The position numbers were made by a program, and so were the translations under genes. Positions 20,817-49,800 of a stretch of 64,000 nucleotides of DNA are shown here, piece by piece. Location: assembly GCA_964057225.1 (NCBI GenBank), contig OZ059900.1, forward strand, positions 10,354,001 through 10,418,000, in the 5' to 3' direction. This stretch comes from Auanema rhodensis. Its lineage: Eukaryota > Animalia > Nematoda. How positions within the stretch are numbered: the first letter of the stretch is position 1; each line of letters begins with the position of its first letter. The notes beneath the pieces were generated by a model. The model was not told the DNA's origin. It saw only the letters and a program-made list of their open reading frames with translations, and searched no databases.

Positions 20817-22455
20817 AGTTTTAATAAAAGAAGTTGGAACAAATATATATCAAGTTAGCCTACAAGTGAATGTATTTAATACAAATTATATCAAAATGTA
20901 TACTGTATGAGTAAATTAGTAAAATTTTATAGAATTGTGAACATTAGTCTATCAATTTGTTATTTAACGAGAAATCATGGAAGCAGCACCTTACATTCAA
21001 TATCAATTGTTTATAGAGAACAAATAGAAACGATATTAAAATGTCAGACAATAGCAAAACCTTGAGAAGACAAGAATTCTATCAGTTTGAGCCTATTGAG
21101 ATTTAGAAGTCTTTCAAATTAAATTAGACTGAGTAGTAATGGCAATAAAAGTTTTAAAAGCATGGAGAAACTGTTAGTTCTCTGCGTTAAGGCTAAACAA
21201 GGAAGTACACAAATCCATTTATCAGAGAAAATACTCGGATATTGAGAACTTCTAAGATCTAAATTCAATTACGATTTAGATGAGACCTATAGAACTTGAC
21301 AAATGAGATGCATCATCATAACTAGTAATGTTTAATGGAGTTGAATATGATATAGGAATTATATAAAAATAGAAACTAAGCTGGAAAATATTTAAATATG
21401 TCGAAAAGTCGAGAGAAAAAAAACAAGATGGCTATCGTATAATCACGGCAGGGAGTGAATTTAGAAAAAAAGGGCGCAGATAAGTAAATGGCGCCTAAAC
21501 AATATTTGAAAATATTATTTTTTTAACACAAAATATTGTAAAAACAATACAATCAACAAAGAAAAAAACTGTCATATTCTCTAGTTTTTATTCGTTTGGC
21601 GCCATAAATTGGGTATTGCAATAAGGTTTGCAGTCTGATGCGGTCAAGATCAATATCGAAAGTTGAACTTTTGAATAGACGTTCTTAGTCCACACGTTCT
21701 TTGTATTCCTATCTCTGAATAACGTAGAAAATCTGTCGCACATGTGGTTTTTAGTCATTTGTTTCTGTGAATTTCCCATGTTGTAGGTAAATTTTTCAAG
21801 TTTTTTTCAGCATTTTTTCGTTGTGAAAGATTTAAATAAGCATGGTTTGTATCAAGTGCATTTGCTTCGTTTGTGAAGTAGTCCGTTCAGTCTCTTAGAA
21901 ACTAGATCAGCGTGATACGAGATGGTCTCAATGAACTAGGAAACCTTTTGATTTCTTATCAAATAAATGCTCTTATAAACATTCTCAATGATATCGTTGC
22001 ATTTCGAGAAGAACAATAGTTTTGTTGGTGTATCTAAAGCATAGTACATATAATTTGTTTCAGGATAAGCACTTCTTGTCAAATAGAAATCACATTATTT
22101 CCTCGGTACATATGGTTAGGATGACCAGTCAGTCGGCTGTGATTTATAGAGAAAGAAATGGAAGATATACTTAAGAATATCAATACGCGATTAATGTAAA
22201 TTCTCAATTGAAGAAATTCATTACCACTTCAAGAACCAAAGTATTATAGCTACATATAACGGTTTAGTTGTTGATATTTGCATATATTTATACGAATTAG
22301 TTTATTAATTTTTCATAATTAATGATAGTTTATATAAATTTTTATTCTTAATCTTATATTATCAACAAATAATATATGTGGACAAGGATATGAATATGAT
22401 TTCAATTCTCTTGATCCTATTGATTTAACACATCTGAGTCTTTTGCTTTGTACAA

Positions 22456-25400
22456 TTAGCTCTGAAATACATCAGAAGCTATCTGAAATAGTAAAATGAA
22501 TGAATATACTGAACATTGTAGTATAACCTACGTCTGCATTAAAATTGACATATGACGGATTTTCTTGAGGACCTAAACATTCAAAAAACATTAGCATCAC
22601 CTTTGATTAAATTGAAATTTGTAACTTACAGTCATTTTCATCTAAAGCTTGTGTTTCATTTGGAGATTGTTCTAACATCCATTCAAGATATGTTGCTATC
22701 ATTGTAAATGTTGGTCGTAAATCACGTTTTTCCTGAAAATACTTTGCTCCATGCTCAGATATAAATGCAACATGTTATCAATATTCTTGACATGTTATCT
22801 GACAACTGACCTGCCAGCAAGTAACCATAAGTACATAAATCTCTTCGGGACAGTTATGAGGAGCTTCCATTCTGTTATATAATCAAGTTAATAAATGTTT
22901 TGTTTTAATCAAAATGGATATGATAACAATAGTTTTACCTATATCCAGCTTTTAAGCATGTAAATAGCTGTTCCATTGCTATAGTTGGATAAGGAGTACC
23001 ACCTAATGTCATAATTTCCCACATTACAATGCCAAAAGACCAACTGTAAACAGATTTTTAATCATAGAAATGTGAATCAAGTCTTGTAATTAGCTTACAC
23101 ATCACTTTCTATTGTTGATATTTGGTTATCAAGCGTTTCAATAGCCATCCATTTGAATGGTAATCGTTCTTTACCCTTTTTTCTGAGATAAAAATCAAAT
23201 AACAAGAAAAATATATGTATCAGTTACCTGTAATAATCATTATATTTAACATCCTTAGATAAACCGAAATCCGAAACTTTCATCACAAAGTTGGCTGCAA
23301 CTAACACATTACGAGCTGCCAAATCACGATGTACAATCTATAAGTAAATTTTCCAATAAAATCATGAGGAAATATGTTTTTTGTACCTTTCGACTGGCCA
23401 TAAATTCCATAGCTTTTGCTATTTGGAATGCAAACTGCACTAGATGTCGTTGTGTCAAGTTCTCAATAACAGGCTTTTGCGTATAACATGCTTTACGTGG
23501 TTCTAAATAATCTGTATAACCTCCGGTTTTTAGTTTTTCATCTTTAGGTCGATGTGCCCGCAGGAAATCTCTGAAATTTCATTCATGGCTCAGATTATTA
23601 ACTTCATCATACCTCAAGTTGCCATATTCGCATAACTCTAGTAATACGTATAGCGGGCCAACTCCTGAGCAACAACCAATCAAACGCAATATATTCTCAT
23701 GACAACCAATGATCTTGAACATTTCCATTTCTTGAACTAATGTGACAAGATCCTTTTCAGTTGCACTTGGCTTAACCTTCTTAACAGCTACAGGCATCTG
23801 TAATTTCAAACAGATTTTTGTAATATGATACTTATAAATTACCTCAAGCTCTTCGCCGCCAGCTTCTGGTGGCACACGTAATGTTGCTTTCCATACTTCT
23901 CCAAATGCTCCTGAACCGATAACTTCTTGTAACTGCAGGCGATCTCGTTCTATTTCCCAGTTTTGATCTGTCGAAACTTCATACTCATCAAGCATAGTTA
24001 GCTCCGAGCTTAATCGGAATCGTGTGCCTTTACGTTTAGGAGGATTTTGTTCCACAACCTAATTATTATAATAAATGAGCTATAGAAACCGTATATACAT
24101 AATAGAGCTTACTTGTACTTGATAAGATGCTGGTTGTTCTCGCCATTCACCATTACTATGCGTTTTATGCGTAACAATGATCTAAAAATTAAAAAATATT
24201 ATGGAAAATAAGAAATTATTTACCTTTTTACGTTTTCTAATAAGTGCCTCATTCTCTAAGAAATGTTTTTTCTTGTAGTACGTGATACATGTTATATATG
24301 CAACACCTAATCCAACTAATATTGAAATACTCACAATGACAAAAGCAATTAAAACTGAAATATTCAATAATATAATCAATAATAATGTTTTATTAATATT
24401 ACTTATCCACCATATAGTTAACTCTGATTCAACTGATCCCGTGGGAATTTCAAAATCCATGAAATCATTAACAAATAAAGTTGCATTAGCCATTGCCTGT
24501 CATATTATTAATTATATATAAGATGTAAGAAATAGAACTTACTAAACCGAGTGTATTTCCTGTTATACAAGCATATACTCCTTGATCATCAGTTGATATA
24601 TGCTCAATTAATAATGTTGATTCATCACGATCTTGCACTATAGTTGCACGCTAAAAAAGAATTTAACTATGAGTCAGCATAGTTCAATAAGCAAGAATTC
24701 ATTAAAAAAAACAAATATTATAACAAAGCGCGAAATAACACCGTACCTCAAAATCGGTTAAATCTTGATATACATATTTTTCGGGTGAATCATATGATGA
24801 CTCGTATGATCGCTGATTTTCAGATCGAATCATACGTGCCCATACAATATGTGGTGCTAAATCTGATATAACTTTACATCGAAATCTGGCAGTTGAATTC
24901 ACATTAACCTAGAAAAAAAAGTGGGAACATGATGAATGTGTTTAAAGTACAGCAAGATAGTTAGCAGAGCCTGCGCTACTTACCGTTTGATTGACAAGCA
25001 CATTTGGAATAATTAATGGTGGTGATCTCATTCGACTTATAATTTTTACGTGGAAAGTTCGGTTAACTGTTCCAATTTCGCTCCAAATCTTGAAGAAGTG
25101 AATAAAGTGTATTTATCACAAACGAAAGAATTTGATATACCTCGCATACATATTTCCCAGAATCATCTGTAGATGCATCTTCAAGCTCTAAACTCCATTT
25201 GCGAATACGATATTCAGATCCTGATCCACGGGGTGAATCCTGTACAATTAGAGCATCATTTTTATGCCAAATAACCTATAAACTCAATCATTAGCAAAAA
25301 CTCAATTATATTTCATCTCACCATAGGTTCAGGATAGCCACCGGCTTTACAGCTCAACCGTACTGTTCTACCTGCTGGAGATGCAACATGTCGTTCCTGT

Positions 25401-27193
25401 TCATCAGAATCTTTGAAATACGGATGAACTAAACATGAACAAATTAGAATAATCATTTAAGAAATTGTAAAACCAATATTACCTTGCTGATGAGGCCGTA
25501 ACACTGCTTTCTCAACAATTTCGGGTGGAACACTAAAGTTAGAAAAGAACGTATTTTCACTTGTTGATTTCTCTAGACTACGAACTTCTACGGATTCATC
25601 TGTATCTTCTTCTTCGACAGTTTCGTCTACAATAGCTTCTGAAATACGATGGTATATTCATTTTCCAACATTTAGCTGATGCAATATATATAAATATCTA
25701 AGAACATGTTTTGAATCATGATCCAAAAGTTATCTGTCCTACCATGAGCACTCAGAAATTGTAAAGCTTTTTCATATTTTTCATCTTGGCTTAGCCGATT
25801 CCAATCAATAAACATAAATTTGATTATTGGAATCATATCAGTTGATACAAATGGTGTTATATCAATAAAGTCAGGTACTTTATCCTCAAGAATCCAGTTA
25901 ATCAGCTTGACAATATCTAAAAATTCAAATAAATTAACTAACCATTTTTTGTTGGTTCATTGAAATAATGTGATGAGATGGTGGACGGTATGGGTGGGAG
26001 AAGTGTTGAAGAGATTGGCAGCATTCCTTTCATCTCTGATGGTACGGATGCAAAACTCATATAAGCAGGCGCCGATGATGATACGGAGGATGTGGCATAC
26101 AGTGAATTAGGTGTGGTTGATGCTACATAGTTTTGTGTCATGCCATCAGACGCAGTTTGTAAACTCAATGGCCGACCATACTTATCACATGGAGGATTGA
26201 CACACGTGGTATACATGCGAGTTATCTTTTTTTGTTTTGTTGGATATCTTGTTAGGTATTTTGCACACAAAGCTTCATTAACTTTCGTTACGTCCACATC
26301 AGAACGACGAATTTTCGAAAGTTGCCATTCACACAGACATTCAAATGGTACAACCGTCTGAGATATGCCGAGATTCAAAAAGTACTGACAAAAATCTGAA
26401 ATGAGTCACTCACAACATGCACATCATGCATGAAAGTTTTGAAATTTCTTCACGATTAAGCAGAGAATAAGAAATTTTACATAAAATCAAATTTCAAAAC
26501 ATCTTTTTCATGCAGATTTGGGAAGAAATATCACACTAAACATGCGCATAATAGGCTTACCGATGATTTCAACTGTGAAATTACGTTCAATCGATCCAAC
26601 CTGATTACTAACTTTACATGTCCACAAACCCTAGAAATAGAAATAATTAAATGAGAATAGCTTTTTTCGTTTTTCTTTAATTTTTTGAATTAAGTAAAAG
26701 CAACTTTTAATCAAAAAATGCATTAAAATTTGATGAATGTTCGTCTTCTTCAATGTCGTAAAAACAAAAAAATGTTCACTTTGATGTTGACCTTACCTGG
26801 TCTGATACTTCAACTTTACGTATTTCTAATGTCATATGTTTACGACTTTCCCGAAAACGATTAGTCTTGATTTTCCGGGGCTCCACAACTTCTCCGTTAC
26901 GATACCAAGTAACAGCAGCTTCTGATTTTGATAAAGCATAGCAAGATAGTTTAACCTGAGTTAATTGAACGCATCAATTAGAAGGCATATGCAAAGAAAA
27001 ACTTACCTTATCGCCTAGGTATACTTCATGAATTTGCTTTTCAAACGTTTTAAACCTCGGTACGCCATCTGAATTGAGATGTTCATATGTAATTCAAAAA
27101 ATGAAGCAATAGGTGGTTACCTCGGAAGAGATGTGGTGGTGTAGCCAATAATATAGGAAATATCACCAAAAATTGGAAAAGCAAATATTTCAT
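22456..27193 (-). CDS. egl-15: Fibroblast growth factor receptor (3 Ig domains, alternative exon 5, acid box, TM, tyrosine kinase)
   Basis: Signal peptide [17 protein letters not shown], Ig1 (VKLSC..W..DQGLWTC), acid box ([11 protein letters not shown]), Ig2 ([18 protein letters not shown]), Ig3 ([25 protein letters not shown]), TM segment, and kinase ([54 protein letters not shown]). The exact last exon is ambiguous. Confidence 0.96.
26411..26430 (-). promoter_or_regulatory. Intronic splicing element: tandem RBFOX (UGCAUG) sites with SUP-12-like GU-rich flank upstream of egl-15 exon 5B
   Basis: The minus strand reads TGCATG-ATG-TGCATG-TTGTG, 16-35 nt upstream of the first base of the exon at 26395. 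This resembles the UGCAUG+GUGUG element known from C. elegans egl-15 intron 4. A third TGCATG is at 26509-26514. Confidence 0.8.
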
Positions 27194-30288: not shown

Positions 30289-33010
30289 TCATGGCGGTGA
30301 AATGGAAACACTGTCATATTGCTTAATGGATTGATGATCTCTCTGAATACATTTTATAATTAGTTTATATACTAACTATGTTCTTTTTCACCGTTATCTT
30401 AAGGTAGCATAGATAAATAGTCTCCAAGACTACAATAATGCCGAGAAACCCAATAATCAAATAATATACTTGAGTAATTGAATCATTATTAGATGTGCAA
30501 TACACATTATTCTCTAATAATTCTTGCGGCATTATTTCTGCTACTGATTCTCTTACATTCAAATCTTCGTTCACAGTATTTATTGCTATTACAGATGAAT
30601 CAGTTGTTTGTTCTTGTGCTAAAACAGATGTTTCATCTTAAGCTTATCAAAGCACAATACCTCTTTCTTGCATTTCTCGCACTTCTTTGCCATGTTGTAA
30701 CATTTTTCGAATTTCATGACCATTTTTGAAAAATTCTCGAATATCTTCACCGTTTCTCACCATTTCGCGAATGTCTTTAGCCTTTTTCAATAGTCTTTCT
30801 CTTTCTGAATCATAATGCAATTTTTCGTTATCATCTTCATCAGTTGTAATATTTTCTACTTCCTTCTGAACGTTTGTTTCTAAAATAAGCATCAGTTTTA
30901 GGAAAGGTTTAACTTCATTCTCACCATTTTCAAAAGCTTTTGTTGTAGCTTCTTCGATATGAACAGCATTTAGCATAGCTGTTTCATTGTTCAAACTTTT
31001 TCGTATTTCCATAAACTTTTCGTACTCCTCATGAGATTGTGCTATGATTTCTCTATTCATTCGATCTATAAATATTATAAGTTAATTAAATTATATTACG
31101 ATGACGTTATGCTCTTACCACTCTGATATTTATTATATGGGCTTAATCGTTTATTAATGCGTTTAACTGTTCTTTCAATTTCTTCAAATTTATTTTCTAA
31201 ATTTATACAATTTGAATGAATAATTAATAATGGTATACATACCCTCATATACGTTTCCAAGAAACCTTCCAGCAATATCATATATTTCTTTGATTGTTTC
31301 AACTAAAATGAAAGACTAGTATTCATGATAATATTCAAAATGCTATTTTTATCATTAAACAAACCAATTGTTTGATTTTCTGACGTTTTCTCAAAGCATG
31401 CTTCATTCTTATATATACTCAAGCCAGATGTTACAGCTTGGTTCTTAGTTCTGAACTGTTCAAAGTTTTCTGGTCCACCTTGTTTGTCAGACAAATGTCG
31501 AAGTTCTATATTTAATTATTTATAATTATAGCATATAGACCTAATTATAATTGAACTACCGTATATTTTACCACCTCCTTGATAGTATCTAGGCAAATCT
31601 GGAAAATCTTCTTCTTGTACAGCTTTTGGATCTGGATGAAGATTAGTAAAAGTGGAAGAATAATAGTCTTTTTTACCTTCTGCTGTCCAATCAACTATTT
31701 TCTTTTCAGAAATATCTAGAAACAAATCTTTTATATAGAATTACATTACAGAAAGTAGTTTTTGACAAAATTAAGAATAATATACCTTTAACTAATGGAA
31801 GTTTATTGCATTCAGTACTAGTACAGCAGCAATTAGCCATGATTTCTGTTCTATTTTTATTTTTCATATTTTCAAAATCAATATATGCTAAACACTGCAA
31901 TTATTAAAATAAACAAAAAAAAGTACAAATGGAACATGAAGATCATCTTACTGAAAATGGTCTGCTACACATTTCAATTGTCATCAAAGGCACATTTACT
32001 CCAGATGATTCAACTGGTGTAATTTCCCGCGTATGAATCTAAACAAGTCAGTTGAGCATGACATAATTTGAATTTCATGTCTGCTTACATTAACTTTAAA
32101 CGTCGAATAGCATATCGGAAATGTGAGTGGAGCTTTCGTTGAATGAACTGCAATCATATTTTTTCCTTTCGGTTCACCACGCTCACTAATCTGCCAATTG
32201 AATTTCATGAAATGTATAAGAAGTATCTGTTTCAAATCATACAAAGCATCTTATAAGTGGTAGTCCACGATAAAATTCGCTGCCGAAAAATCCATGGTAA
32301 TAATGAAGAACTATGTTGGTTTCAGTATGTTCCAAATATTTATTGAATACTTCTTCAGACTAAAACTTTTTTTTTCTCAGTCAACTCTTCTACTAGGCTA
32401 ACCATATCATAATTTTGTTTTTGAATCATATCATTCATGAGTAGATAGTCAGAGTGATTTGAACAAAATTGTCCTATAATATTCTATATGTTTATAACAG
32501 TATAGCTGACTTGAATACTTTTTTCATTCACATTTAAATAATTTTTTATTAATTTAAGAATATAAATTTGAATTATATTAAAAATGTACTAATTTATAAA
32601 TCAAAAATGTTCGCTTAATCAGTTTTTATCTGAATAGACTAGAAAACAAAGATAAGACCATTTTCTAAATAATTTCATCAATCGAATAAAAATAATAACG
32701 TTCATGATTAAAGATCACTAATTGTACCTCGATAATAAAAACGATGATGATTTCTTAGTGGCTTGAACGGATGAAATATTCTGGGTTCACCACTAATGTC
32801 TGGCAAATTTGGTATATAATTGAAAATTCTGAAAGATGTTCCAAAGAATTTTTCTTGCGTTGAAGTATAAATATGGAAGTTGCTTGGCGACATACGATCT
32901 ACATCAGTATAAAGTAGATTATCGCAAGCACAGTGTATTCGGATGACAACTTGTAGAATACATAATATCACAAATAGCTGATGATCTGATGGTCGTATGC
33001 TTAACTTCAT
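30289..33010 (-). CDS. Uncharacterised type-I membrane protein: Cys-rich three-finger/activin-receptor-like module, coiled coil with 10-aa repeats, TM, short tail
   Basis: About 13 exons join in consistent phases. Product: signal-like LFVILCILQVVIRIHCA; LIRCF...PICYSTF...EMCSRPFSCLAY...ANCCCTSTECNKLP; a charged helical region; TM VYYLIIGFLGIIVVLETIYLCYL; tail ending QYDSVSISPP, stop TGA at 30289-30291. Confidence 0.75.
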
Positions 33011-34646
33011 GTATAGCAAAAACTGAAATTAGGAGATTTAGAACGGTAGAAAACTGGCTATGAATGAATCGGATTGTTCTGTTGAATTTTGAATAAAGAC
33101 TATAATGAGTTTGAAGAAAATGAAGGTATAACCAGACTTATATACTATTAAAAATTAATTATTCAATATATTAGATATAACAATAAAAGTTAAATTAGAT
33201 TTAGTTCATTTTAAAAATAGAATCTCAAACAGATCATAGAAAAGGTAGACGATAACTGGGAGCAATAAGACCACAGTTTAGGGTTGAACATGAACACTTG
33301 AACACAGACTACATTTGATATAATATTCCATAAATAGTAATTGAATTGTTAAGTTTTGGTTATGTTTTAGTTAAAATGAAATGTTTTCATACCCATATTC
33401 AGAATATTAGCAAAATGTTTAAAAACTTATAAATTGAAGGAAAACTGTTTGGAATCAATAATTCAAACTGTAAGTATCAAAGCACAGACACTTAAGTTTC
33501 TTAGAAACTACAAAAAAAAACATTTTCAGCTTGAAAATAGGTTAATATTAAAGTGATGTAACAATTAATATATATTACATCATACAGATGAAGTTACCTT
33601 TGTAAGAACTGCTATATGAAATCACAGAATGCAGTGTTCTCCTAGCACAATCAGTCTATAGTGGGCGGCGTAGTTCATGCGCATAATAGATCACTAACGT
33701 TCAAAATGTGTAAGTGAAATAGCGCCCTTTTTTCTTTCCTGATTTCAAAGTTCTCTTGTAAATTTATGTATTATTATCTCACTACATTATTGTTTCTATT
33801 GTTTCATTCAGTTTATCAATACGGTCGCAAAATGATATTTGGCTTCATAAACGTATGAGTATATCAATTTTTCTCTGATTATGACGGCAATAAGATGCTG
33901 TTTATTATCAGAAATCATTGGCTCAGTCGATTATTCTAGTCAAAAAGTTAACGTTGCACATATTTTGATAAGAAATAGTTGAAGAAAGAAAAAGTATTCA
34001 TTTCAATCTAACATTAACAGTCCATGTGAATGTTATCTGAAGATAAAGCAAGCGGTAAGAGTTCATAGAGAACTTTGGTTTCGAAAAGAAATGTTTGAAA
34101 AATGCTGAATTTTATAATAAAAATGTGTACATATTTGGCTTTATATCATAATTTGCGTAGAGAAATAGATGGAAAATCATGAGATCATATGGATTGTTCA
34201 AACTTGAGACGACAAGCGTATGAGGTTTTAAAGAAAAAATGAAACTAATTGGTATGGGGAGCAAACACTTAAATGGAAGGAAATTGCAGATTGGGGAAAA
34301 AGACAAACTTTCTATTGATCTTGATATAGATTTTAATCTTCTTTTCGTGCAAACGACTGAGTTGCAATTGATAAAATCTTGTTTTCTAAAACAGTTTGCT
34401 CAAAAACAAATGAATCTCAAGCAGCTAAGAACTAAAGAAAAGGAGAAGAGAAGCGGAGATGATAAACAGCATATTTAGATGACAATAGTAAGAACAGATA
34501 CACGAGATGAAGAAAGAGTTTCATACAGGAAGTGATTTTGGCTAGTTATGGCGGGAAACGTGACATAGTGGCGGTTTATGGAAATAGCATGTAGAAGCTT
34601 TTCGGAGTTGATTTTCTTCGGACGATCCTAATCAGTTTGGATAGTC

Positions 34647-34969
34647 TTATCTTCCAAGCTTCGGAACCTGAAACAGTTTATGCATATGTCTGAATTCAAA
34701 TCCTTTGGAGATTAATACCTGAAGACTCCATTGATTTTCAACTTGCGGTGGGATACCAGGCGATGCAATCGTAGGATGATCAGCTCCGCAAACAGAGGTT
34801 GGTTCGATAACTGAAACATATCCAAAATATGCATTTCATTCAGACAAATTTCATTAATTGTTAATGTGAAAACGCAGAATTAGTTTGTTTTTGTAGCAAC
34901 ATTACCATTGATCCTAACATCAGGTTTCGGAGTAAATGCTTCACGTACACAAGAACACAAGCAGCCCAT
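34647..34969 (-). CDS. 58-aa microprotein, predicted N-myristoylated/S-acylated, with PxIxIT-like and LxVP motifs
   Basis: TTTCAG acceptor 2 nt before the ATG. Exons 34969-34906, 34810-34719 and 34667-34647 are joined by GT..TTTCAG introns of 95 and 51 nt. Product: MGCLCSCVREAFTPKPDVRINVIEPTSVCGADHPTIASPGIPPQVENQWSLQVPKLGR. Exons are GC-richer than their flanks. Confidence 0.75.
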
Positions 34970-37900
34970 AACTGAAATAAATAAATATATATATATATAT
35001 AACTATAAAATATAATAATTAAGAAATATATATTTATTAGAGAAAGTAATATAACAATAATATAGTATGAATAAAATATTAATAATAATATATTAAATAT
35101 GTTATAATAATAAAAAGGAAATGGAACAAAAGTAAAAAAGTTTAATGCATATAGTGCTTTTTTCTTGTTTAGATAACAGATTTGTAAGCGATAGTGTAAC
35201 ATTTAGCTATGTGGTTCAAGTTTCTTTTCAAATTTTGAAACTAAATCATCAAAGTTATGTGAAGAAATATAAATATGACGTATTTGTATTAAGTAAGCTG
35301 AATATTCTGTGCATTTTAAATGAATTTAAGTAAAAAGGGAATGTTACACAACACAGTGTGCTTCTGTTAGACGATTTGACAGCCAAAGAACTTGGAAGAG
35401 AAAGAATAATTAAAGAAAGTTGTAATTCTTTGATCATTGCATATAGGCTTAAATGTTCCTTGGACATGTAAATGCGTTCAAATTAATAAAATCTTGCTTA
35501 ACTATATAACTATATGTAATTAACTATTAAGCATGAAGATACTTCTCTACCATTGATTTGAATCCTCGAAAGTATTAAGATTGAAATTCAAAATAGAAGT
35601 TTACTATATATTTCAGATTGAAGAAATAGTATAAAACAAAGTGCGGAATACAGATAAAAAATGATGAACAAGAGTGCGAGTAACAGTTGTAGTTGGATGA
35701 ATAAAAATAAAAATATACTTTCTGGCTGGCTGAAAAACGCTTCGCATATCTTGCTGATTTCAATTGAATTCAATGAAAAGTGCAAATTTAACAGATTTGT
35801 ACTGCTGATTACGTGGTGAAGCAATTTGCATCCATATGCGCATGATATGGTGAATGATGCACAACTACTGCTTGCATAATTCAGTTGGAAACCTGCTATA
35901 TAGCTGAAGATGCTGTAGCCTCCTAGTTGTGTTCAGTTGTTTGAAAAAGTTAACAGATCTATGCTTTTTATATTCAGGGAAATGAGTTGCGCATATGCAA
36001 ATGTCGTTTTGTAAGCTAAATAAAAACAGCAAAATGGGGGAAAACAGAGTTTGATGCCTACAACGGCATATTGCCAGCCCTATGTTGCTCTCTAATTTCA
36101 GGTTTGCAGTAGGAATTTGTTTCCATACTGACTCGAGCAGTTTCATATTTCGTTACGCAAATTCAGATTCAGAACTTTTCTGGCCTGGTTTCAACTCTTT
36201 ATTTCTCTAAAAATATGTTTAGTCTCTCCCTTCTCTGCTTCACTCTATATTTATCTATTCAGACTCTTTCTCTCTTTTTTTCTCGCATATCCCATTTCTG
36301 AACATATACAATATTTTCATTTTGATTCGGTTTAGTTTCTCTTTGTCTTTCTTTCTATTTTTTTATCTCTTTCTCTCTATCTCTTCCTCTTTTTCTCTTT
36401 CTCTTTTTTTTCAGTGGTGCCTCAATATCTATAGCGAATTTTCTCTTCTTATGTCATCTGTTTTTAAAAATCTTAAACGGACACACTATGTCTTTGATCG
36501 CCAAACAACGATATGTATTCATTTCCTGAACTTATGGAAAGATACGGGAGTGCTCAATATAAAGTGAATGAGCATGACAAAAAGCTCACCAATGCGGAAT
36601 ATGTTTTCGAACTTTTGGGTGTAGATCAATGATCCTTGTTGTTGAGAGAAAAATTAAAACGCAGAGCAACTGAGATGCAAAACAGTCAATGAAAACAAAT
36701 TACAAGAAAAATATCTGCAGTTCAAGTTCATTAAACAAAACAACTTTCATTTCTTGTGGTATTTTTAGTTTTGAATGATTGTTTGTAGCAAAAAGTATAG
36801 TAAATAGTACTGGTGATTGGTAAAGTAGAATGGTAATGAGGTAATAAAATAAATATTTAGAGAAATACAAACAAATATTTCTTTTGTTCTAATCTATTTC
36901 TTTTAAAAAAATTGGTAAATAATCGTGAAGATGAAAGAATGACAGCACTACATAATTCATTAATGAAAATTGAGAAACAGATAATGATTGAAATGAAATT
37001 GCTCATCTTCAAAACGAAACAGCATGAGAAAACCTACTATGACTTGCTTTATGACAACATTTACACACTTTAAATCCCATTTCGGCCATGTGAAAGTGAC
37101 AATAACAAATCATAACTGCAGGAAAGGAAGCAAATTTCACATTGCAAAAGCATGGTTATATGTAAAATGAGTAGTTTAATAATTTAAACATAAAATTTAT
37201 AATGAACTAATTGAGACATCATGATTAAATAAACACATTTCATATGATGTAGTTTTTCCAAGAATGAAATATCAAAAATATAATTAGGGAGAAACATCTC
37301 AGTTCGTTTAGCTTCAGACATGTAAAAATAATAAGATATTCTTATAGTCAAGTTAATTCTGAATATTTTCAATTTCTTCTGAATGTATCTTGAGCATTAT
37401 ATGATATTCAGCATACAAATACAAAGTTATTGAACAAGAAAATGATAGAGGGTGATAATTTTCAATTTAACATTGTCTTTCATGTTGAAATCGATTGAAT
37501 TTTTAAAAGTTTTGCTAAAAATACTTAGAAGAATGAAAAACATTTCTACCTCTCTATATAGACATAGTTGAAAGATAGTTTATAATATATTCATGTTTTG
37601 TAAGAATAATATATAATTCACCTACACTATATGATAAAAATTGTCAAAATGCTATAAACTAGCAATATACTATAAGTATAATATGAATACGAAATTTTCT
37701 AATAATATAATATTAAAATAGTTTGAACAATATAATTGAAAAATTGCGATTTCACTAATAACTAACATAAATTTATTAAAAAAAAATATAAAACATTATG
37801 ATTACAACTTAATTAAAGAAAAATCAAATATTATTTTTCTCTGTTTCTATCCAGCTCTCGCTCCCTCTTTCCCATAATCTCTCACTTTTAACTTCTTGGT

Positions 37901-40900
37901 GACATAATTATGTTCACAATCTCATACTTTGTATGAAAAAGGTGAACAATGGCTGCCATCTCACTCATGATTCCGTTATATACTTCATTCGATTTAGATA
38001 TTTCAACAAATTGTCGCCATAGAGACACATTGGTCAAGCAAACGGCATAATTTAAACTCACATAGGTAACGCGAATTCAAAATTTCAATGATAATATCAG
38101 TATTATGTTTTTTCCATTTTAGTTTTCTGATTTGGCGCTTTTTTTAGCGTTTCTCTCTCTATTACTTAAACTTCCTTACTCATTCTCATTCTGGCAGTTT
38201 CAATCTGTCTCGGGCACATGCAACCCAGTATATATCCTGTGATATCCATTTGTTCACATATCAAATATTATCTTTGAATATTTTTCTCAATAACATTTTC
38301 TATTTATTTTTTTGTAACGATAATCTCTTTCTCTCAGTTGCTTTATATATATATAGATGTATCGAAATGTACGCTTAATAGTTTACTATGCAAAATATAT
38401 GTAACTTGTAAAGATTTGTATTCTTCAAATACAATTGTTTATGCATCAAAAGCAGTATAGAAACATATTTTCAATCAATTTTTGACCAACTTCATTAATT
38501 TTTCGCTATTTTTCTTGAATCTTTAATTTGTTGTGATGAAACAAATTACAATATGAGAAAGAGAAATATAAAAAAGTAGACAAAGAGAGATTCGAAAAGG
38601 ATAATCAGGATAGTGAGTAGGCGAGAGAATGAAAGAAACGGAGGACAACGGAAACATGTCTAGATTGTATCTTATATCTCAAAAATTGATGAAAAATGCA
38701 TATCTATAAATGTACTTGATTAAAAGTGGAAAAATGTTTCCAAAAGTTCTGCGTGACAGTCTGAACTATTGGAAATTTGAATCAAAAATTCTCAAACAGA
38801 GTCAGTATCAAATTATTCAATTTTCAGTGTGCAAAGTTTAAACATCAAAGCGTTAGGCATATTTCTGATAAATAGTTGTATATTCTTAAATAAAAACCAC
38901 AAAAAATCTATACTATTATTAAAATAAAAGAAGAAATATACTATGCGGTATATCTGTTCAATTCGTCCTAATTATATAATATGCCATTCTGTTTTCTTAA
39001 TTGTATAAAAAGCATCCTGAGTATTTCATTAAATTAAAATAAATAAGATATACTTGAAATTTAAAACAAAATGTTACATGTTCATATAAGTTGAATGAGT
39101 CAACTAACATCCAAAACTATCATAGATATGAATGATATGAGTATGTGATTATTAATTGATACTTTTCTTTTCATTATCAGTCAAATCTATGAATAGCATT
39201 GTTGATAATGCTATATAAATATGTATACATATGAGGATATTGCTCATATTTTGCATATATCTTGTTCAGAATATAGATAATGAGAGAAGAAGTGACAAAA
39301 AGGAAGACGATGGAAGCAGTGATATCACTTTTCACGTGGATTATCAATAAATATTATAAATCTTTTAAAAGTTCATGAATGAAATATAATCACAAATTGG
39401 AAAAATAATAATAAAAAAAGTAGAATATGATACAGATCAGCTTCACGTTACTTATCCTATTTATACATATATTATATCATATTTACCACTTTATATGACA
39501 TTTTTGAGTTTTTATTTTTCATAATATCAGCCATAGATTAGATTGAGCGCTGAATAAAAAAAGCCAATAAAAAGCACGTGAAAGATAGAAATTGATTATA
39601 AAATAATATGTTGATGTTGAAGATATTGATAAATGCTGAATATGTTTGTAATTTGCCCATTTCATTTGTATACTTGAACATCAACCGCATATAATCAACT
39701 GTCAATTTCATATATGTATTTTGATTTGTTCTAAAGAATTGACTATTCAAACTTTCTTTTTTCATTTTCTATTTCATGAATGTTATAATTATTCATCTTT
39801 TTTTCAGTTAAAACATATCTATAGGTTGAAATAATAGTTAATTATATATGTATTTATATATATAATCTATATAATAAACTATAGTTGATTATAATATTTG
39901 TGGGTTTTAATATTATATTTAAATGGAAGTAATTTTATCAATTTTCATTTTCTCTATTTCCCTTTTATTCTAGAAGTATGTAACTTCCTCGTTTAGAAAA
40001 TACGTTCTTAGTTTCAAAACAAAAAAATTAAAGTACTCTTGCTCTCCACTCTGATTATTCTCCCCCCCCCCTTTTTATATTTTAATTGATAATCTTTTAT
40101 CATAACAGCTAACTTAATCAACTATTTCGTGTCTTTTTTCCAAGTTGGAAATGTTCTAATGTTTAGTGTTATATTTTGCATAACACCTGCTACAATGCTT
40201 TGTTCTTTGACATATGTAGTTTGGAACTTCACAACACATTGTGGTCTAGTCCATTTTAGCAGCCGCATAAAATTATGAAAACTTCCAATTGGTTTTCTTT
40301 CAATCTCTTTGGCTTTTTTTCATCAAATCTTCAAATTCATTCTACTACTGCTATCGCTCATCGTTTGACAAAGCTGCCAATTTCAGTGTTCGAAGATTGT
40401 CCTTAAAATTCTTGTTTAGATAAAGCCTTGCACTTGCTTACTTGTATACATGCATCTCACTTCAAGAATGCGAATGTGAGAAAAGATTTATCTTTGTCTT
40501 TAAAGGAATGTTCTTTAAAATTAATTTGGATGGGCATTCATGTGTCAGAAGAGAAGCCCAGATAGAGCGTACGCTGCAAAGAGCAGGAAGAAGAAAAACG
40601 AGAGCTACAGATTGAAAACGAAAAGACATTTTTTTTTGAGTTTGACCTTTTTTCTTAAAAATAATGTGTTCAGTCAAAAATGAAAAAGTTGTTGTATTCC
40701 ATTGTTTACGAAAATATTGAAATTTTCAAATACAACAAGAGTAAAGGGTAGTATCTAAAACTGAATCTAACCTTTGAATAGATTTGCAAAAAAAATATTA
40801 AAAAAGTAGAAACGAATGTAAAATCAAATGTCATGCTGGGTTCATTTCAGTGCGATGATTATTCGGCTCGCTTGAAACTTATTAGTAAAACGGTGATTGC

Positions 40901-43719
40901 GATGAATTGAATCACTTCTCTTTGTTTCAACAACTCGAAATGAGATAAACGATTGCTCTTGATGAGATGAAGACCAACAGCAGATAATGTTCAATGTATA
41001 ACAGTACATTATTCAAAAAATAAATGTCAGACAATCTTCAAAGAATGGGAGCAAAGCTAATTGAATACCAAAGAAACGCCATATTAGGAACAAAGTAAAA
41101 AATTTGAAATTATCAAAAATGATTAAAAAGTAAAAAATTTAAATTTAAACCACAAAAGAACTAAAGAAAAGCTGTAAATTTTGTCAAAACAGAGCCAATA
41201 AAATGCGAAGAATTTGAGTAAAGAGATTACAACAAATATAAGAAATGAAATAGCGTATGGAAATAAACGACATATGAAATGAAGTGAAAAAATTGGGTGG
41301 GCGAAATGACAATCTATCTGTTGTCTGAGCTTTTTGACGTTTTTCTATTTTTCAGGAAAAGGCCTGTCCATAAATATAAGTATTATGATATATATGGAAG
41401 ACTTAAAATCATTTAGAATTAGAGAAACAAAAAATGAGAGATAAAAAGAAGGAGAGACAATATGAGAAAAGAAGAAGAATGACAGATATTTTTCAACTTG
41501 GTGGTGTTTAATGCACAAAATAAAGGATCCGGTGGGCTGTAAAAATGCTAAAAACGGTAGAGAAGGTAAAAAAATTTAAAAATAGCATATGCGGTTACTA
41601 AGTAGCGGAATCAGTTTTTTGATGCTTTGTGAGTGAGAAAGACGGAGCCGAGGATGAGGAGAGCAAAAGACCATTGAAGAGATAGGAGAGCTCAAAGCGG
41701 AAAGAGGATGGCATGGAAATATAAACTAGTCCGAACTTTTGAGCTATTTATGCTATTTATCAACTAAATTCCATGGAAATTGTTTGTTTTTAAACTTTGG
41801 ATATAGCTTTTCAAATAGTGGTTAATTCTAGTTGAAGCAACTTATCTGAGATACTGTTCTCAATCAAGAGATCCATACAAAGCACGACAATCATATTCTG
41901 AACTGACTTGGCTGACATGAGACGCTGACGGAGGGAAGGTTTTGGAGGCTCGTATGAGAGTCAAGCCTGGACGACCGCAAGTATGTTAACTGATCTGACC
42001 TCAAAAGCCATTCATCTGGCTGCTCCATATTCCACGCCTCTTTTTCTTTCAGCTTCTGTGTCTCTCTCAATGTCTCTCTGTTTCAAATATGCATTCTCTT
42101 TATTAAACTTATCTATACGCAATGAGCATATAGAGAAAACAGGAGGAGTTTAGCCCCCCCCCCTGATGCAGGCAGGCAAATCATCAAACAAACCGCAAGA
42201 TTGTAATGCAAGCCGTTTATTTGGCCAATAATAGCATGATTTTCGACGCATCGGGAGCAATTAGTATGAAGATGCAGATTATGCAATTATATTCAATATT
42301 GAAATTATATTTTTAAGCTTGGCAACAGTTTATAACAAATTTAACTATATTAATCAATAATGGTATAACATTTGTCAACAAACTACAAATTGTAACTAAA
42401 ATAAAACTCCGCGATCAGCTGTAGTTCATAAAACAATGAAATCTCTTCCATCATATCTCTCTTTCTCTCTCTCTTTGTTGCTCTCTTGCTTTCTTATCAA
42501 CATATCACAATCCAAAAAAAACATTTACTTTCCCTTGCATGAGAGCAATTTAAATGTTTTTTTGCTCGTTTTTCTCATGCCTTTTTAATATGTTTTCGGT
42601 TGTTTTCTCTTATTTTCTCGACATATAGTTTGTATGCGTTGATCAAGAAACTCATCTTATTCATTTTTATTTTTGATCGAAAATGTATCTACTAAACTAC
42701 ATAAGAGAATGTGATTAGTAAACGGAGCATTAAGAGCAACATATGATGCCATCATGGAACAAGGAAAACTGATAATGGTGAAGAGGAAGTATGTATAAGT
42801 TGAGAAAATGTATCCGTTACACGAGCATGGATTGTTGGATATAAAGTTATTAGGCAATCGGATTACGGTGAAAGGATCAAATAGAAATACTTTTTGAGCA
42901 AGAAAAGCACATAGGAAGTTGCAAATGAGTTTAGTTATAATACTTCGTGACATAGCGATCCAGAATAAATGCAAAAAATGAATGTAGTAAGCAAGTATTT
43001 GATGAAATATTAGCATAATACTCTATATCTGTTTTTGTTTGTTAAAACAGTTTTCACTCAATGACAATTCTAAGAAGCCTAAAAATCTTCAAAAAACAAA
43101 ATGAAAATGAATTGTTCGAAAAGAAATCAAAACTCGAAAGTTACTGGATTTTCACATGAGAATAATGACAAAACGAACAACAATAACGACTAAATGAAAC
43201 ATCTGTAGGCAAAAAAGAAAATGAGATGAGATCTCAACATCATACAATGCTTTGACGTTTCTATCATTCACATATGCATTATCTTTCAAAGGACAATAGA
43301 AGGTTGATTATCTAAAAGCATATCGATACATAGCATTTTCTAATTTTCTAGTTGCATTTGCATAACTCAATATGAGTAGATGGATGATGAGCATGAAGCA
43401 TTTTGCGTATATGATTTGATATTCTATTCTTTTGCCTTTTCAATGGTTGCTCAAAAATATGCTTAACGAAATAAGTTAACGAGAAAATGAAACGTGAGAT
43501 ATGTATTAGAAGATAGAAAGATGAGATCAATGATAGAGAGAAAAAGGAAAAAGAATTTATTCATCTATCTTTCTTTATTCATTTTGTCCTTGAGCTTTAA
43601 AATATATACAACTTATCTTGCAAAATAAAAAATTTGTTTCGAAAAATTAAGATGAAAAACGTTACATCATAAGCAAATTATAAATATAATTAGAGTAAGA
43701 AACATTTCACTTTAATACG

Positions 43720-46700
43720 CTAATCATTGAACAGTCGCGAAGGTGCGTAAGACTCTTGCATGAACATGACGCGATTGCTTGTAAACGATGCTTGGCTGCC
43801 TTTACGGGAATTTCTACGTTCTGTTACGTATGCTACTGACGGAATAGGTAAATAGGATGCTAAGGAGCCGCGACGAACAGGTTCCAGTGGTGGTATGCCA
43901 AGCTCTTTATCTAGCTGAGCATTGCGCACTGCAAAGTATTTCATTGAAATAGAAAAAAATCAATTTTGCAAATTAATGAAACAAAAACAAACATTTGGCT
44001 TCTAACCCAGGCACAAACTTCAATTTTTCCACCACAGATGGATATCGCCTGAAAAGTTGAAAATGACAAAATAGAAAAGGCCATTTTCCTTATTCTATAT
44101 AAACGTCAAACTAATAATTCAAAAAAGTATAAAAGATTGATGAAAAATTTAAATGAGTAATTGATGCTGCATAAAAGAAGTATACTTGAAAAGTTCTATT
44201 TGAAATTGAACTGACCTGAAAAATAGAAATGCTTGCAAGCATGCACATATTTGAACAGGTAGGAAAGATAAAGCAGCCGAAAAGAATGGGTAACCTGAAA
44301 AAATTGTCATTATCTTGTTATGAATATTAGTATATCTACGATTTAGTTGTAACTTTTTTGCATAGTTTGGACTGAAAAAGTTCCGGGTTTCCAGATCTAA
44401 CTTATCTCTCCGTTATAAGGTTTATTTCACTTGAGGCAATGAGAATTGTTGGACTTTTTTTGTTTATTTGTTGAAATATGATGGCATGATCATAAGACAT
44501 GCGGTTTTTATAATAAACTATGTAATAATAGTCATATTTCAACATAAATCTCTGTATTTCCTTATGATCATATTTATTTTCCTGTATACTATAACAGATA
44601 TAGCTGCTCACATTTCAAACAGGAAAAGATTATGACAGAATGGGAAGACATAAAGTATTGTTTGATTTAATAAATTCTCCTAAAAAAATTTGAACGTAGC
44701 CATGAAGTTATACTGGTTTTACAAGCATTTGTATGGATAAGGGATTGAAGAAAGATCAACGTCTAATATTTCTTATTGTTCTAGCTTGGGGATGACTTTC
44801 TGATTTCACATAGCTAAATATATATTCGAAATTATTTTGCCTTTAACTTTATACATCTTTTCACAAAGAACAGATTGCTGATTTTTAAATTTCAAATTAA
44901 TATTTTAGGGAAAAATGAAAAAAAGAAACTAAATTTTTAAAAAATAATAAAAATATTTTCAATGAAATATTGCAGTTATAAAGTTTTCTCATTTTGACTT
45001 GTTGCATGTGTTTTTCTATTAAGAGTATGCTTGTTGTTATTGTGTGTTGTGTATATATTTCTCAAGTTTTCTTATTGTTTCATTGTTTACTCACCATATT
45101 TATAACTGAATTGGCTGGGCTCTCCGGCAGCATTCGGTTTCATGCGTGGGGCTAATTCGTCATCGACCACACATACAACCATGAGAACGGCGGTCGATAA
45201 GATGATGCCTATATAAATGAATTTAAATACATTTAATTGAAAAAGCAGATAATGTGAAAAAAGAAACGGGAAGGAAGGAAGAATTAAATTAATGGGACTA
45301 AAAAGCTCAAAAAATTCCCTCAAGACATTGTTTAGAAGTACATGGAATGAGATGAATTGAGAAACTAGAGAGATTGTCAATATACAGACTTAAAGAGAGT
45401 ACGTATTTTGAGATATTCAGCTCATTTCTAATTGTTCATCTCCGAGTCTCATCATTTTATTGGAGTATATGATCTCATCCGGTTATTTGTCAATATGAAT
45501 CACATGACTTACTTCCCATTATATAGCAAATTGATGCAAATAGTGTACTCGTTGTCTTGTTCATATGCCCAAATATAGCGAGAAATAATGCCAACCAACA
45601 AATGGATGCTCCGGAGATATGTAAAAGTGCTGGCATTCCCAAACGAACTGAAATGAAGAAAATTAAAAAAGGGTTTGTTTACTTAATTAAGCGCTCCTCA
45701 TGCTATAAGCGTACAAAATCGTACCAATAACAGCTAAAGAAGCAACTGAGAAATTCGTTAAATCACGTTGCGTAATTAACGGATTCAAATGGCATTGATG
45801 TCGAGATTCTTTTTCTGAAAAAAGTAAAATCATTCACAGCTAATTCTTAAATTACAACAACGAAATGTCCTTATTCCGCGTTCATACAAAATGTACGAAA
45901 AATGATTCAAAACTATACCTGGCAGTTCATCTTCTGTATAGATAGTCCCAGTAAAATTATAAATAACATAACGACATAATTGAAAATATCCCGTATTATA
46001 ATGAAAGGTTGTCTCCTTAAATATAAAATATTGTTTATAATGAGTTTTTTAAAGGAAAAATTACAATCAATTCTCCATTTTCACTTGTCCTATTAATTTC
46101 ACGAGGCTCAGTAAATAGCACCCAATTGTTTAGTATAATTGGAAGTGATTGAAGTATGATAACAATAAAGCCAAACATCATAGATGTTGCAAATAGTACA
46201 TTGTCTGTACATCGTGCTTCAATGAAGAGCTGAAATATACATTTAGATAAACTTAAATTTTATATTATTATAATAAATAATCAAATTTTAACTGTAATTG
46301 GATATCTAAGTTACAACATTTTTATTTATCGATTTTGAGACTGACCATTAATTTATTTTGAAAAACTTTTTATTAGCTCATTAAAAGTTTAATTTATATT
46401 ATCAAGTGCTCAAGATTTTTTTTCAAAGAAAATGTTGATCAGAAGACGATTTGAAGCGTCATGGTGGGCATAAACGATTTGATTAAGTTTAAAAAAAACT
46501 TTTCGTTACTGAATTTTAAATTTTAAATTAACGAATGCATTGCCATATCTTTGAAACTGCAAGAATATATGAAACAAGGGTACTATATGTATTAACGTGG
46601 AAATATATTGATGAATATAGTATATTCAACATATATTTTGAATAATTACATAGTTATATGCCGAATTCAAATTAAAAAAACAAAAATTTCATAAAGTAAA

Positions 46701-46840
46701 TAACTAGAAAACATGAAAATATATTTTACCTTGGATAGCTTTTCACTCATCGGGTAGTCAACTGGCTGCTCCCAGCTCGGTTGTTGCTCTTCCTCATTCT
46801 CGTTGTCTAACGCAAATTGTCCGCTGAACCGTGGACTCAT
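43720..46840 (-). CDS. Stargazin/TARP-like claudin-superfamily 4-TM protein (STG-1/STG-2 type glutamate receptor auxiliary subunit)
   Basis: TM1 followed by NNWVLFTEP, GYFQLC...C in loop 1, TM2 and TM3, VVDDELAPRMKPNAAGEPSQFSYKYGYPFF leading into TM4, and an Arg/Ser-rich tail (RRGS, RRNSRKGS). Stop TAG is at 43720-43722. I cannot distinguish stg-1 from stg-2. Confidence 0.82.
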
Positions 46841-49800
46841 TTTGGCCTAATAACTTTTGTCTTTCAACAAATTTGTAAACTGAAAAAAACAAAACTTCAA
46901 AATAATATGTTTCTCTTATTACGACGACAAAATGAGTTGAAAAAAAAATAATTGATTTAACTATATGATGCTTTTCCTTAATTTTTCGTGCAATAGATTT
47001 CGAAGAAGTTCATGCTGCTCAGTTCATTCTATAGAGTTTAATTAGGGTAAGTTATAAAAAAAATTAATAATAATATTGAAAATGTTTGAAAAATTACTAT
47101 AAATAATGAAAAAACAGCTGCATAGATATCCTACTTTTGGTGTTAGGTTGCACAGGTTTTGCGACCAAGTATAGCATTGTGAGAAGTAGCCATCGAACTT
47201 AGAACGGATGAGTAAGTAGCTGAAAAATGGGAGAGATAGCTGCTTGATGGAAAGACGCAAATTGAAATTGTATGATGCAGTCTGCTAGAGGGGATATAAG
47301 GTAGTTGTCGAAGATGTTCTCTCATTCTCTCTCTCTTACTCTTTTTGTCCATTTCTCAACCAATTTATCTTCTAAATGCACAAGGCTAGGTTTAGAAGCT
47401 TCTGAAGATGATGACGATGATGATGGTGATGTACTTACTTGAAATTGGCTAAGAATTACATCGTCCACTCCAGCCAAGATGATGTGACAGAAATTGAAGA
47501 CGATTCTCGCTGTGCACAAAGAGCAATCACTTAACACTATTCGAATAGTAATAAATCGCCAAGAAACGTGTTCAGAATAACTTGAAAAACCATTGAGAGC
47601 ACAACTTTTCAATCATACTTTTGCATTTTTCTCACATATATAATTATAATTCGTCATTCACAGCCACATATTTTAATCTTCTTACTTCAGTTTTCACGTA
47701 TGTTACGTGATATCCAATAGAATTTCGCTCAAGTTTTTTTCATTAAAAGCAATTCCGGAAAGCAATTTAGCTCTCTTTTCCTTTAGTTCCGTTTTTTTTT
47801 TAAGTATTCTTAGAGGGTGATCGTTTTCTGGTAACCAAGATTTTATATAAGCTTCAGCTCACGCGAATATACGAAAAAGAATTAATCCACGTATTTTATT
47901 AGTTCTTTTGGGCGAAATGTATCAGATAATAAAAAACTTATTTGATTTTTTTTGAAAATCTTTTTTTTAAAAATTGGAAGATTTTTGCCTGAAGTAAAAG
48001 GCTGAACTAAAAACTAATTCAAGAATGAGAGTAAACAAATGAAAAAATCATTACTGTAGTTTATAAAAATTGAAGATCATTGATTATATTGGTCAAAAAC
48101 ACTGTGTGTATAATGTTTTTCACATTTTTTTCGTTACCATAAAAAATTGGAAATTTTTTCATCGATTCTGAGAATTAGTAATGCTATTAGTCATCATGAA
48201 ACCACCCATTCAGTAAAGTTAAGGAGATAAAGTTCTATTTATTAAATTGTATTATGTTCTATTATATGTATATGATATTAATTTATAATATTAACAAGAT
48301 TATATTACTTTATTGGCTTGTATTGGATAAGTGGCATTATGCTTTTTATCAAATACTTTTAAGTATTTGTATATGAATGAAAATGACACTATCATTTTAA
48401 AAATGAATAGACGATTATACAATAATTCTATTAACTAATAAATGATATTAAATTACAAAAACTCTCAAGAAAGAATGCAGTTTGAACTCTATTTCTTACT
48501 TGAAATAACAGTAGTGCAAGGTATATTGAATTTACAAACAAAATATTGTATTTCGATCTTTATGCAGTATCTCAGCTTGAATTTGTCGCTTTAGCAAAAA
48601 TGAAATGTTTTAAAAATCATTTTTATCAATTCAATTAATATAATTTATAAGAAAAGTGAATGAAAATTCTTCTTAATTGCATTGTTTTTCATTAATTGGT
48701 TGTACTCATGAGGCTGCATCGTCTGTCTTTTTACTTATTCACATCAAAATCTTCTCTATTCATCTTGCGCATTTCAATCTTTGTTGCCTTTCATGTTCAT
48801 TCTTCTTCATCAGTACTTCATCTGTCTACCATCGTATGCGTCATCTCAACGTGCGTCCATGCAACGGCACATTGCGCTGTTGCTGTTGCTCTAGATGTTC
48901 TAATTCTACGACTTTCATCTTATTTGCTTTGAGATTCAATTCCTTCCTGGTGGTTGTTTCTCCCTTGGCGAATGCAGACAGAGAGAGCGAGAGAGTTGGT
49001 CAAGGGAGGGAGAAAGAGAAAGAAAGAGACGTACAACATCACATGCACTGCAAATGCTTCACATATGTGCCTTAAAGTAATTGGTCAAATTTGACATATA
49101 AGCATAAATGTATATTTGAAGCTTCATAATATCAACATACATATGAATATCTATATGCGTATTCGAAATAAGGCAGTATGGATATGTACTACCATGAAAA
49201 GCCCTTTTGAATATAAGTAAATAGTCAAGTATTGCTTTCTATAGCAATTCATATTAAACCAATGAATGATTCTTGAAAAAAGGGTAATTGTTCTCATAAT
49301 ATTTTCTTTTTTTCGGTGAAATTGTAAACTCCATAAACCAGGGAGACATTTCAAAAATAGATTTGACGATTAGAAAGAGTGAACAAAAGAAAAATCAAAC
49401 CCAGCAATATGCTTCGCTTTTTCTCGAAAATTTTCTTTTTTGATATGAACGCTAACAAAATTTATAACCAACAATACTGCGCAGATCCTAATAAATTCCT
49501 TATCTGATAAGGAAAAATAAAATAATTAACAGTTTATCCCGTAGTTTGCGCATAACTTTCAAATATATTTATAAATGAAAAGCAAAAATTCTATTTCCTC
49601 ATATTTGGGAAACGAAACTTTATGCTGTGTGTACATGAGATTATTAGATTAATCAGTGAGCATCGCATTCTTCTCATCTATATTGAGGCACGTCATATGA
49701 AATTTGGAATAAATATAAAGCTAAGAAATCGTAAAAAGGGACAAGCTCATAATGAATCCTTCATATGAAGGATTATCTGACAAATAATTCATTTGTTTAA

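Follow-up and report, generated by a model that had tools for sequence, protein, structure and literature searches.

An expressed orphan gene of Auanema rhodensis for a 58-residue microprotein with a predicted lipid anchor and candidate calcineurin-docking motifs

A lipidated microprotein that docks on calcineurin exists in mammals (PMC12612047, PMC12170882), and the ASFV protein A238L inhibits calcineurin by filling both of its docking sites, with a PxIxIT motif followed by an LxVP motif 17 residues away (PMC3582496, PMC8667882). PxIxIT docking is also at work in C. elegans (PMC5125939). Our literature search, which covered few subscription journals, turned up no PxIxIT regulator other than RCAN-1 in work on C. 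elegans calcineurin; it found no lipidated, calcineurin-type microprotein in a nematode and nothing related on cnp-2/cnp-3. With regard to lipidation, the MGCxxS/T consensus of C. elegans PEF-1 is myristoylated at Gly2 and palmitoylated at Cys3, and this consensus alone sends GFP to the ciliary membrane (PMC11569196).

In the 64,000-nucleotide stretch of A. rhodensis DNA analyzed here (the window), translation of the sequence gives a minus-strand gene with three exons over 34969-34647, which together form a 58-codon frame encoding a 58-residue protein. A preliminary description, made from the letters alone, had proposed these three exons with their TTTCAG acceptors, the 58-residue product and the motif positions within it, and all of these hold, both in translation and in the spliced contigs of 4/4 runs. 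The features, in the direction of transcription, are as follows.

34972..34977, minus strand: TTTCAG acceptor, 2 bases 5' of the ATG; likely trans-splice (SL1) site (sequence; end of the run X4 contig).
34906..34971, minus strand: exon 1, coding from 34969; residues 1-21 and one base of codon 22 (sequence, contigs).
34949..34969, minus strand: MGCLCSC codons; predicted myristoylation (Gly2) and S-acylation (Cys3, possibly Cys5 and Cys7), from the MGCxxS/T consensus (PMC11569196).
34907..34924, minus strand: PDVRIN codons (residues 16-21), a PxIxIT-type match to the loose expression from 10.1101/632547.
34811..34905, minus strand: intron 1, 95 nt, GT..AG, phase 1 (sequence; spliced in 4/4 runs).
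34719..34810, minus strand: exon 2 (residues 22-52), a Pro-rich linker with Ser38-Pro, ending in the Leu-Gln of LQVP (sequence, contigs).
34668..34718, minus strand: intron 2, 51 nt, GT..AG, phase 0; in frame and stop-free over 17 codons (spliced in 4/4 runs).
34647..34667, minus strand: coding part of exon 3 (residues 53-58 and stop), giving the Val-Pro of LQVP (sequence, contigs).
34020..34646, minus strand: 3' untranslated region of at least 627 nt (contigs end at 34020-34055).

The transcript data consist of assembled contigs from four runs of one study, whose label as RNA is a guess; the X1 and X2 contigs begin and end at identical positions, and a single library may underlie both. Of the words of a 2.5-kb query, 27-29% occur in the four runs. 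From each run came one contig, 778-807 letters long, in which exactly 95 and 51 letters are skipped (CT..AC on the plus strand). Because the joints skip introns, the contigs derive from spliced molecules despite the guessed label. Both introns are absent from the contigs of all four runs, which was the RNA junction check that the preliminary description had called for, and the coding pieces of the contigs contain no letters that differ from the genome (4/4 runs). The spliced contigs also fix the reading frame of exon 3 and the assembly of LQVP across the exon 2-3 junction, as had been proposed. The two ends of intron 2 have seven letters in common (TTCAGGT). The position of the second joint is free to shift by these 7 letters; the skipped length stays the same, and neither the frame nor LQVP is altered. 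Retention of intron 2 would yield 75 residues lacking LQVP; only the spliced form is present in the contigs, which drop rare variants. Translations were also made for a transcript that skips exon 2 and for one that retains intron 1; both forms were rejected, as they had no RNA support. At the 3' end, the AATAAA nearest to the contig ends in a hexamer scan is located at 33906, and the true end of the transcript may lie beyond 34020. Contig cover is absent at 33000-33935 and at 34989-36500, which is uninformative. Collectively, 34969-34647 on the minus strand is a real spliced microprotein gene.

At the 5' end, the X1/X2 contigs are clean as far as 34972, while the X4 contig, which is clean in its piece reaching 34967, could be aligned to 34977 with one letter differing from the genome and its first letter unaligned. 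We take the nematode SL1 leader to differ from the genomic acceptor at 34972..34977 at just two such places. Trans-splicing at 34971, two bases before the ATG, is therefore likely, from one contig, X4, in whose alignment the leader letters are not displayed. The region upstream of the start (34978-35120, minus strand) contains an (AT)n repeat and has 8% G+C, as an outron would. Exons have a G+C content of 43-48%, compared with 27-31% for the introns and 8% for the 120 bases before the start. The 58-codon frame begins at the first ATG of the message and is its longest, the next longest having 48 codons. The open reading frame track displays a different frame over exon 1 (ATG-started, 34861-35202, 113 aa), and the earlier remark that this is the wrong one was correct.

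Codon use points the same way. Codon use was scored against a table derived from 21 coding frames of the window that had been picked by hand (1,450 codons). The coding frame scored 0.446 bits/codon, compared with 0.091 and -0.366 in the other two frames, and intron 2 read in frame scored -0.04 bits/codon. None of 16,654 overlapping 174-nt stretches of the upstream gap reached 0.446 (maximum 0.172), the background being taken from that same region. The GC12-GC3 difference was 0.233 (p = 0.003, 20,000 base shuffles). The codon use of the 58-codon frame is gene-like.

The N terminus of the encoded protein, MGCLCS, fits MGCxxS/T, with Gly2, Cys3 and a Ser/Thr at position 6 all present. The earlier claim of a lipidation signal is thus borne out to the extent that a consensus tested in C. 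elegans is matched, and the 58-residue protein is predicted to be lipid-anchored to a membrane. No membrane-spanning segment was found in its 58 residues (best 19-residue hydropathy 0.41). The C. elegans MGCxxS/T proteins PEF-1 and GPA-13 (PMC11569196) share this N-terminal consensus; however, they are enzymes or G proteins, whereas the 58-residue protein appears to have no folded domain.

Two further segments resemble calcineurin docking motifs. PDVRIN (residues 16-21) meets the expression P[^PG][ILVF][^PG][ILVF][^PG], and LQVP (residues 51-54) meets the LxVP core Lx[VLI]P exactly. In 200,000 shuffles of residues 8-58, scored with the expressions from 10.1101/632547, a loose PxIxIT match arose in 21% and a loose LxVP match in 6.7%; both arose together in 1.2%, in 0.37% under stricter rules, and in 0.17% when strict and in this order, values that ignore the many other motif pairs a reader might have spotted. 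The human proteome contains 21,791 PxIxIT and 13,014 LxVP loose matches, described as almost all nonbinding (10.1101/632547). Compared by eye with published scans (PMC6728138), position 6 and the flanks of PDVRIN are unfavorable, with Asn at position 6, Lys at -1 and Glu at 9. Asn at position 6 lowers binding (PVIVIN), and a hydrophobic residue at -1 and a phosphorylated residue at 9 are preferred, but such residues tune affinity and are not required; Glu at 9 slightly raised affinity in one scaffold (PMC6728138). There is precedent for Val at position 3 in RCAN1 PSVVVH, a binder (PMC7458460), and for Asp at position 2 in calcimembrin PDIIIT (PMC12612047). The beta-strand-like run extends beyond Asn21 into exon 2 and offers a second register, starting from Val18, which places Pro25-Thr26 at positions 8-9, a flank that resembles those of calcimembrin and CABIN1 (PMC12612047).

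For LQVP, the preceding Trp-Ser fails the pattern [NQDESRTH]-[YTDFILV]-L-x-V-P at both places. This extended pi-phi-LxVP rule specifies a polar residue at -2 and a hydrophobic one at -1 (PMC5156906; also PMC13022171); it misses 16/25 validated peptides (10.1101/632547), and the His at -1 of calcimembrin likewise lies outside it (PMC12612047). PDVRIN and LQVP are separated by 29 residues, enough to span both calcineurin grooves, whose spacing is given as about 30 Å (PMC5156906) or about 60 Å (10.1101/632547). The tether is short, with only 8 residues between Cys7 and the PxIxIT region. The linker was a low-confidence coil in a single-sequence AlphaFold model of the unspliced exon 2-3 frame, from which exon 1 was absent; this model (pLDDT 64, pTM 0.33) was set aside, its strands being built on intron-derived residues. 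The proposal that the protein carries both docking motifs therefore stands insofar as matches to both are present, while Asn at position 6 (PMC6728138) and the failure of LQVP under the extended rule (PMC5156906) weaken it. Similarly, the proposed link to calcineurin is a fair one given that both loose motifs occur in 1.2% of shuffles, but it draws on motif matches alone, both imperfect. On sequence grounds, the lipidation signal is convincing and the calcineurin link plausible.

The queries for homologues were single-exon frames of the window padded with intron, which distant orthologues could escape, and the collections may lack this organism's neighbors. Word searches found no relative of the exon 2-3 frame among proteins of 34-109 aa and none of the 40-residue exon 1 frame among those of 22-70 aa, with one candidate and none scored at 71-2000 aa. 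A phmmer search of 1.84 billion representatives with the exon 2-3 frame gave three hits, all rejected as long repeat proteins whose score was summed over repeats. In a metagenome scan, 0/598 stretches were confirmed as relatives. A degenerate exon 1 pattern matched 31 metagenome loci, of which one was in frame and none had a preceding TTTCAG or an LxVP; these were dismissed as chance. With the two frames scanned apart against Pfam at E values up to 1, exon 1 matched only B12D (E 0.16, subthreshold and unrelated) and exon 2-3 nothing, and neither query had a match in the PDB. No paralogue was found within the window. The gene is an expressed orphan, its product having no relative in the collections searched with single-exon frames.

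The reading we favor, tentatively and at a little under an even chance, is that the protein would be a lipid-anchored two-site dock, tethering calcineurin to the membrane via PDVRIN and LQVP and blocking other substrates. From the spliced transcript with its 58-codon frame, which is observed, the proposed sequence of events would be that the spliced leader joins at 34971, making the Met-Gly the true start; that myristate on Gly2 and S-acyl groups on Cys3/5/7 attach the product to the membrane, as the consensus suggests; that PDVRIN docks, in the resting state, on the catalytic subunit, which in C. elegans is TAX-6; and that, upon activation by Ca2+/calmodulin, LQVP, 29 residues on, fills the CNA/CNB groove. 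The result would be a local competitor, tunable through de-acylation or through phosphorylation at Thr13-Pro or Ser38-Pro. Only four residues follow LQVP, none of them Ser or Thr. The protein thus cannot present a phosphosite C terminal to this motif, which favors a competitor over a substrate. The distance required between LxVP and a phosphosite is at least 9-15 residues (PMC3582496); Ser38, 13 residues N terminal to LQVP, qualifies this preference. A stronger version, which we consider unlikely, is that the protein is an independently evolved, endogenous A238L-like blocker clamping both grooves at a chosen membrane, with the stop-free, in-frame intron 2 as a possible splice switch that takes away the LxVP and so converts the blocker to a plain anchor. 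All such likelihoods are rough judgements, formed from a low prior for calcineurin binding by a lipidated microprotein, multiplied by the shuffle enrichment and discounted for the weak flanks.

It is quite possible, although we lean toward the dock, that this is a lipid-anchored microprotein with another partner, or a young lineage-restricted gene, and that the calcineurin-like matches arose by chance in a sequence rich in Pro, Val and Ile. Pro (8/58) and Val (6/58) make such matches easy when taken singly, both PDVRIN and LQVP depart from the best binders, and the single-exon searches returned no relative. Chance would, however, have to supply both motifs together, an outcome seen in the small fraction of shuffles given above, smaller still when strict and ordered, in a 58-residue protein that contains little else and for whose architecture calcimembrin is a precedent. 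A single-site anchor or substrate is improbable: here the PxIxIT region alone would bind, recruiting calcineurin to membrane substrates as AKAP79 and MICT1 do and promoting local dephosphorylation, with LQVP idle or only positioning Ser38/Thr35. MICT1 does bind through PNIIIT alone, the LxVP match of mouse MICT1 being dispensable (PMC12170882), AKAP79 provides a case of a non-Pro position 1 (PMC6728138), as the Val18 register would need, and that register has the calcimembrin/CABIN1-like Pro-Thr at 8-9 (PMC12612047). The failure of LQVP under the extended rule favors this reading too; yet LQVP fits its core consensus exactly, better than PDVRIN fits PxIxIT, and the Val18 register has Ile rather than a polar residue at position 6.

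The model could also be wrong at the level of translation: the transcript might be noncoding, or it might be the 3' portion of a longer gene in which an exon from upstream is joined in frame to the 34971 acceptor and the Met-Gly is internal. The evidence is indeed at the transcript level and contigs cannot show a start; moreover, the acceptors of exon 2 and of the ATG-bearing exon share one phase, and an upstream coding exon could therefore join in frame. Against this stand the codon signal, which is specific to the 58-codon frame, the pattern at the 5' end of the X4 contig, and the lipidation consensus located exactly at the first ATG. In addition, the upstream gene terminates at a stop codon of its own (43720), and the gap before it holds a single other minus-strand TTTCAG followed by AT-rich, noncoding-like sequence. 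We regard this alternative as very improbable.

The earlier remark that no gene could be found over about 8.7 kb upstream holds, the next upstream gene ending with its stop at 43720, 8.7 kb away. Rfam gave 0 matches over 32000-44500. The gap contains a GC-richer island at 41814-42150 (42-49%), with a 63-codon frame on the minus and a 74-codon frame on the plus strand and no Pfam or Rfam match; it is possibly regulatory or a noncoding exon. The upstream gene itself (43720-46850, minus strand) has several hydrophobic exons and a tail with an RRGS kinase-type site, without a Pfam match in three frames. The downstream multi-exon gene (30365-32300, minus strand) likewise has no Pfam match above cutoff and apparently ends in an acidic stalk and a hydrophobic segment. 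Across 22 neighboring frames, Pfam identified Ets, fucosyltransferase, tyrosine-kinase and Ig domains and an E1-E2 ATPase; we take the neighbors to include an EGL-15-like FGFR and a P5B ATPase. A second tyrosine-kinase-like gene directly follows the Ig-domain receptor kinase (19858-21800 and 22600-27000, minus strand) and is possibly a diverged tandem copy of it. The neighborhood shows no sign of an operon or of a functional link to the microprotein gene.

Regardless of docking, the locus is an expressed gene that has no match in the protein collections searched and is too short for the usual gene callers. If docking is true, the worm would have a tiny local brake on calcium signaling, and the calcimembrin design (tiny, lipid-anchored, calcineurin-binding) would have been reached separately by worms, with the two-groove layout of the viral inhibitor. 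Such a protein would also be a minimal natural tool for compartment-specific control of calcineurin.

Comparison with calcimembrin (C16orf74/MICT1, 76 aa; PMC12612047, PMC12170882) reveals several shared traits: both are microproteins with Gly2 and cysteines for dual lipidation and with matches to both motifs. Disorder is a trait of calcimembrin and putative in the 58-residue protein. In calcimembrin, by contrast, the two motifs overlap in a single LxVPxIxIT flanked by a phospho-Thr (Thr at +3), whereas here they are separate, 29 residues apart and in reversed order. No Pfam link to calcimembrin/C16orf74 or SPATA33 was found with the exon 1 and exon 2-3 frames scanned apart. SPATA33 is likewise a small PxIxIT protein that places calcineurin at a membrane compartment (PMC8536318), but its PxIxIT, PQIIIT, is stronger (PMC8786283), and the extracts consulted note no separate LxVP. 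RCAN1 and C. elegans RCAN-1, which are endogenous regulators (PMC7458460, PMC5125939), have in common with it a Val in the third position of the PxIxIT (PSVVVH in RCAN1) and a Ser-Pro site between the motifs; they differ in having an RRM domain, SPPASPP, TxxP and an LxVP that precedes PxIxIT, none of which is present in the 58-residue protein. The protein lacks the composite motif, the RRM domain and SPPASPP, and its exon frames gave no profile match; judged by its sequence, it therefore falls outside the calcimembrin, SPATA33 and RCAN families.

The closest parallel in motif order is residues 200-239 of ASFV A238L (PMC3582496), in which PxIxIT also precedes LxVP, the spacing allows both to bind one enzyme, and LxVP lies near the C terminus. 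A238L is, however, a viral protein of 238 residues, with a spacing of 17 residues rather than 29, a strong PxIxIT (PKIIIT) and an aromatic residue preceding the Leu of LxVP; it has no homology to the 58-residue protein, and the extract of PMC3582496 describes no lipid anchor. The proposed dock, a member of neither family, would thus work like the anchor of calcimembrin joined to the motif order of A238L, a combination that we put just short of evenly balanced.
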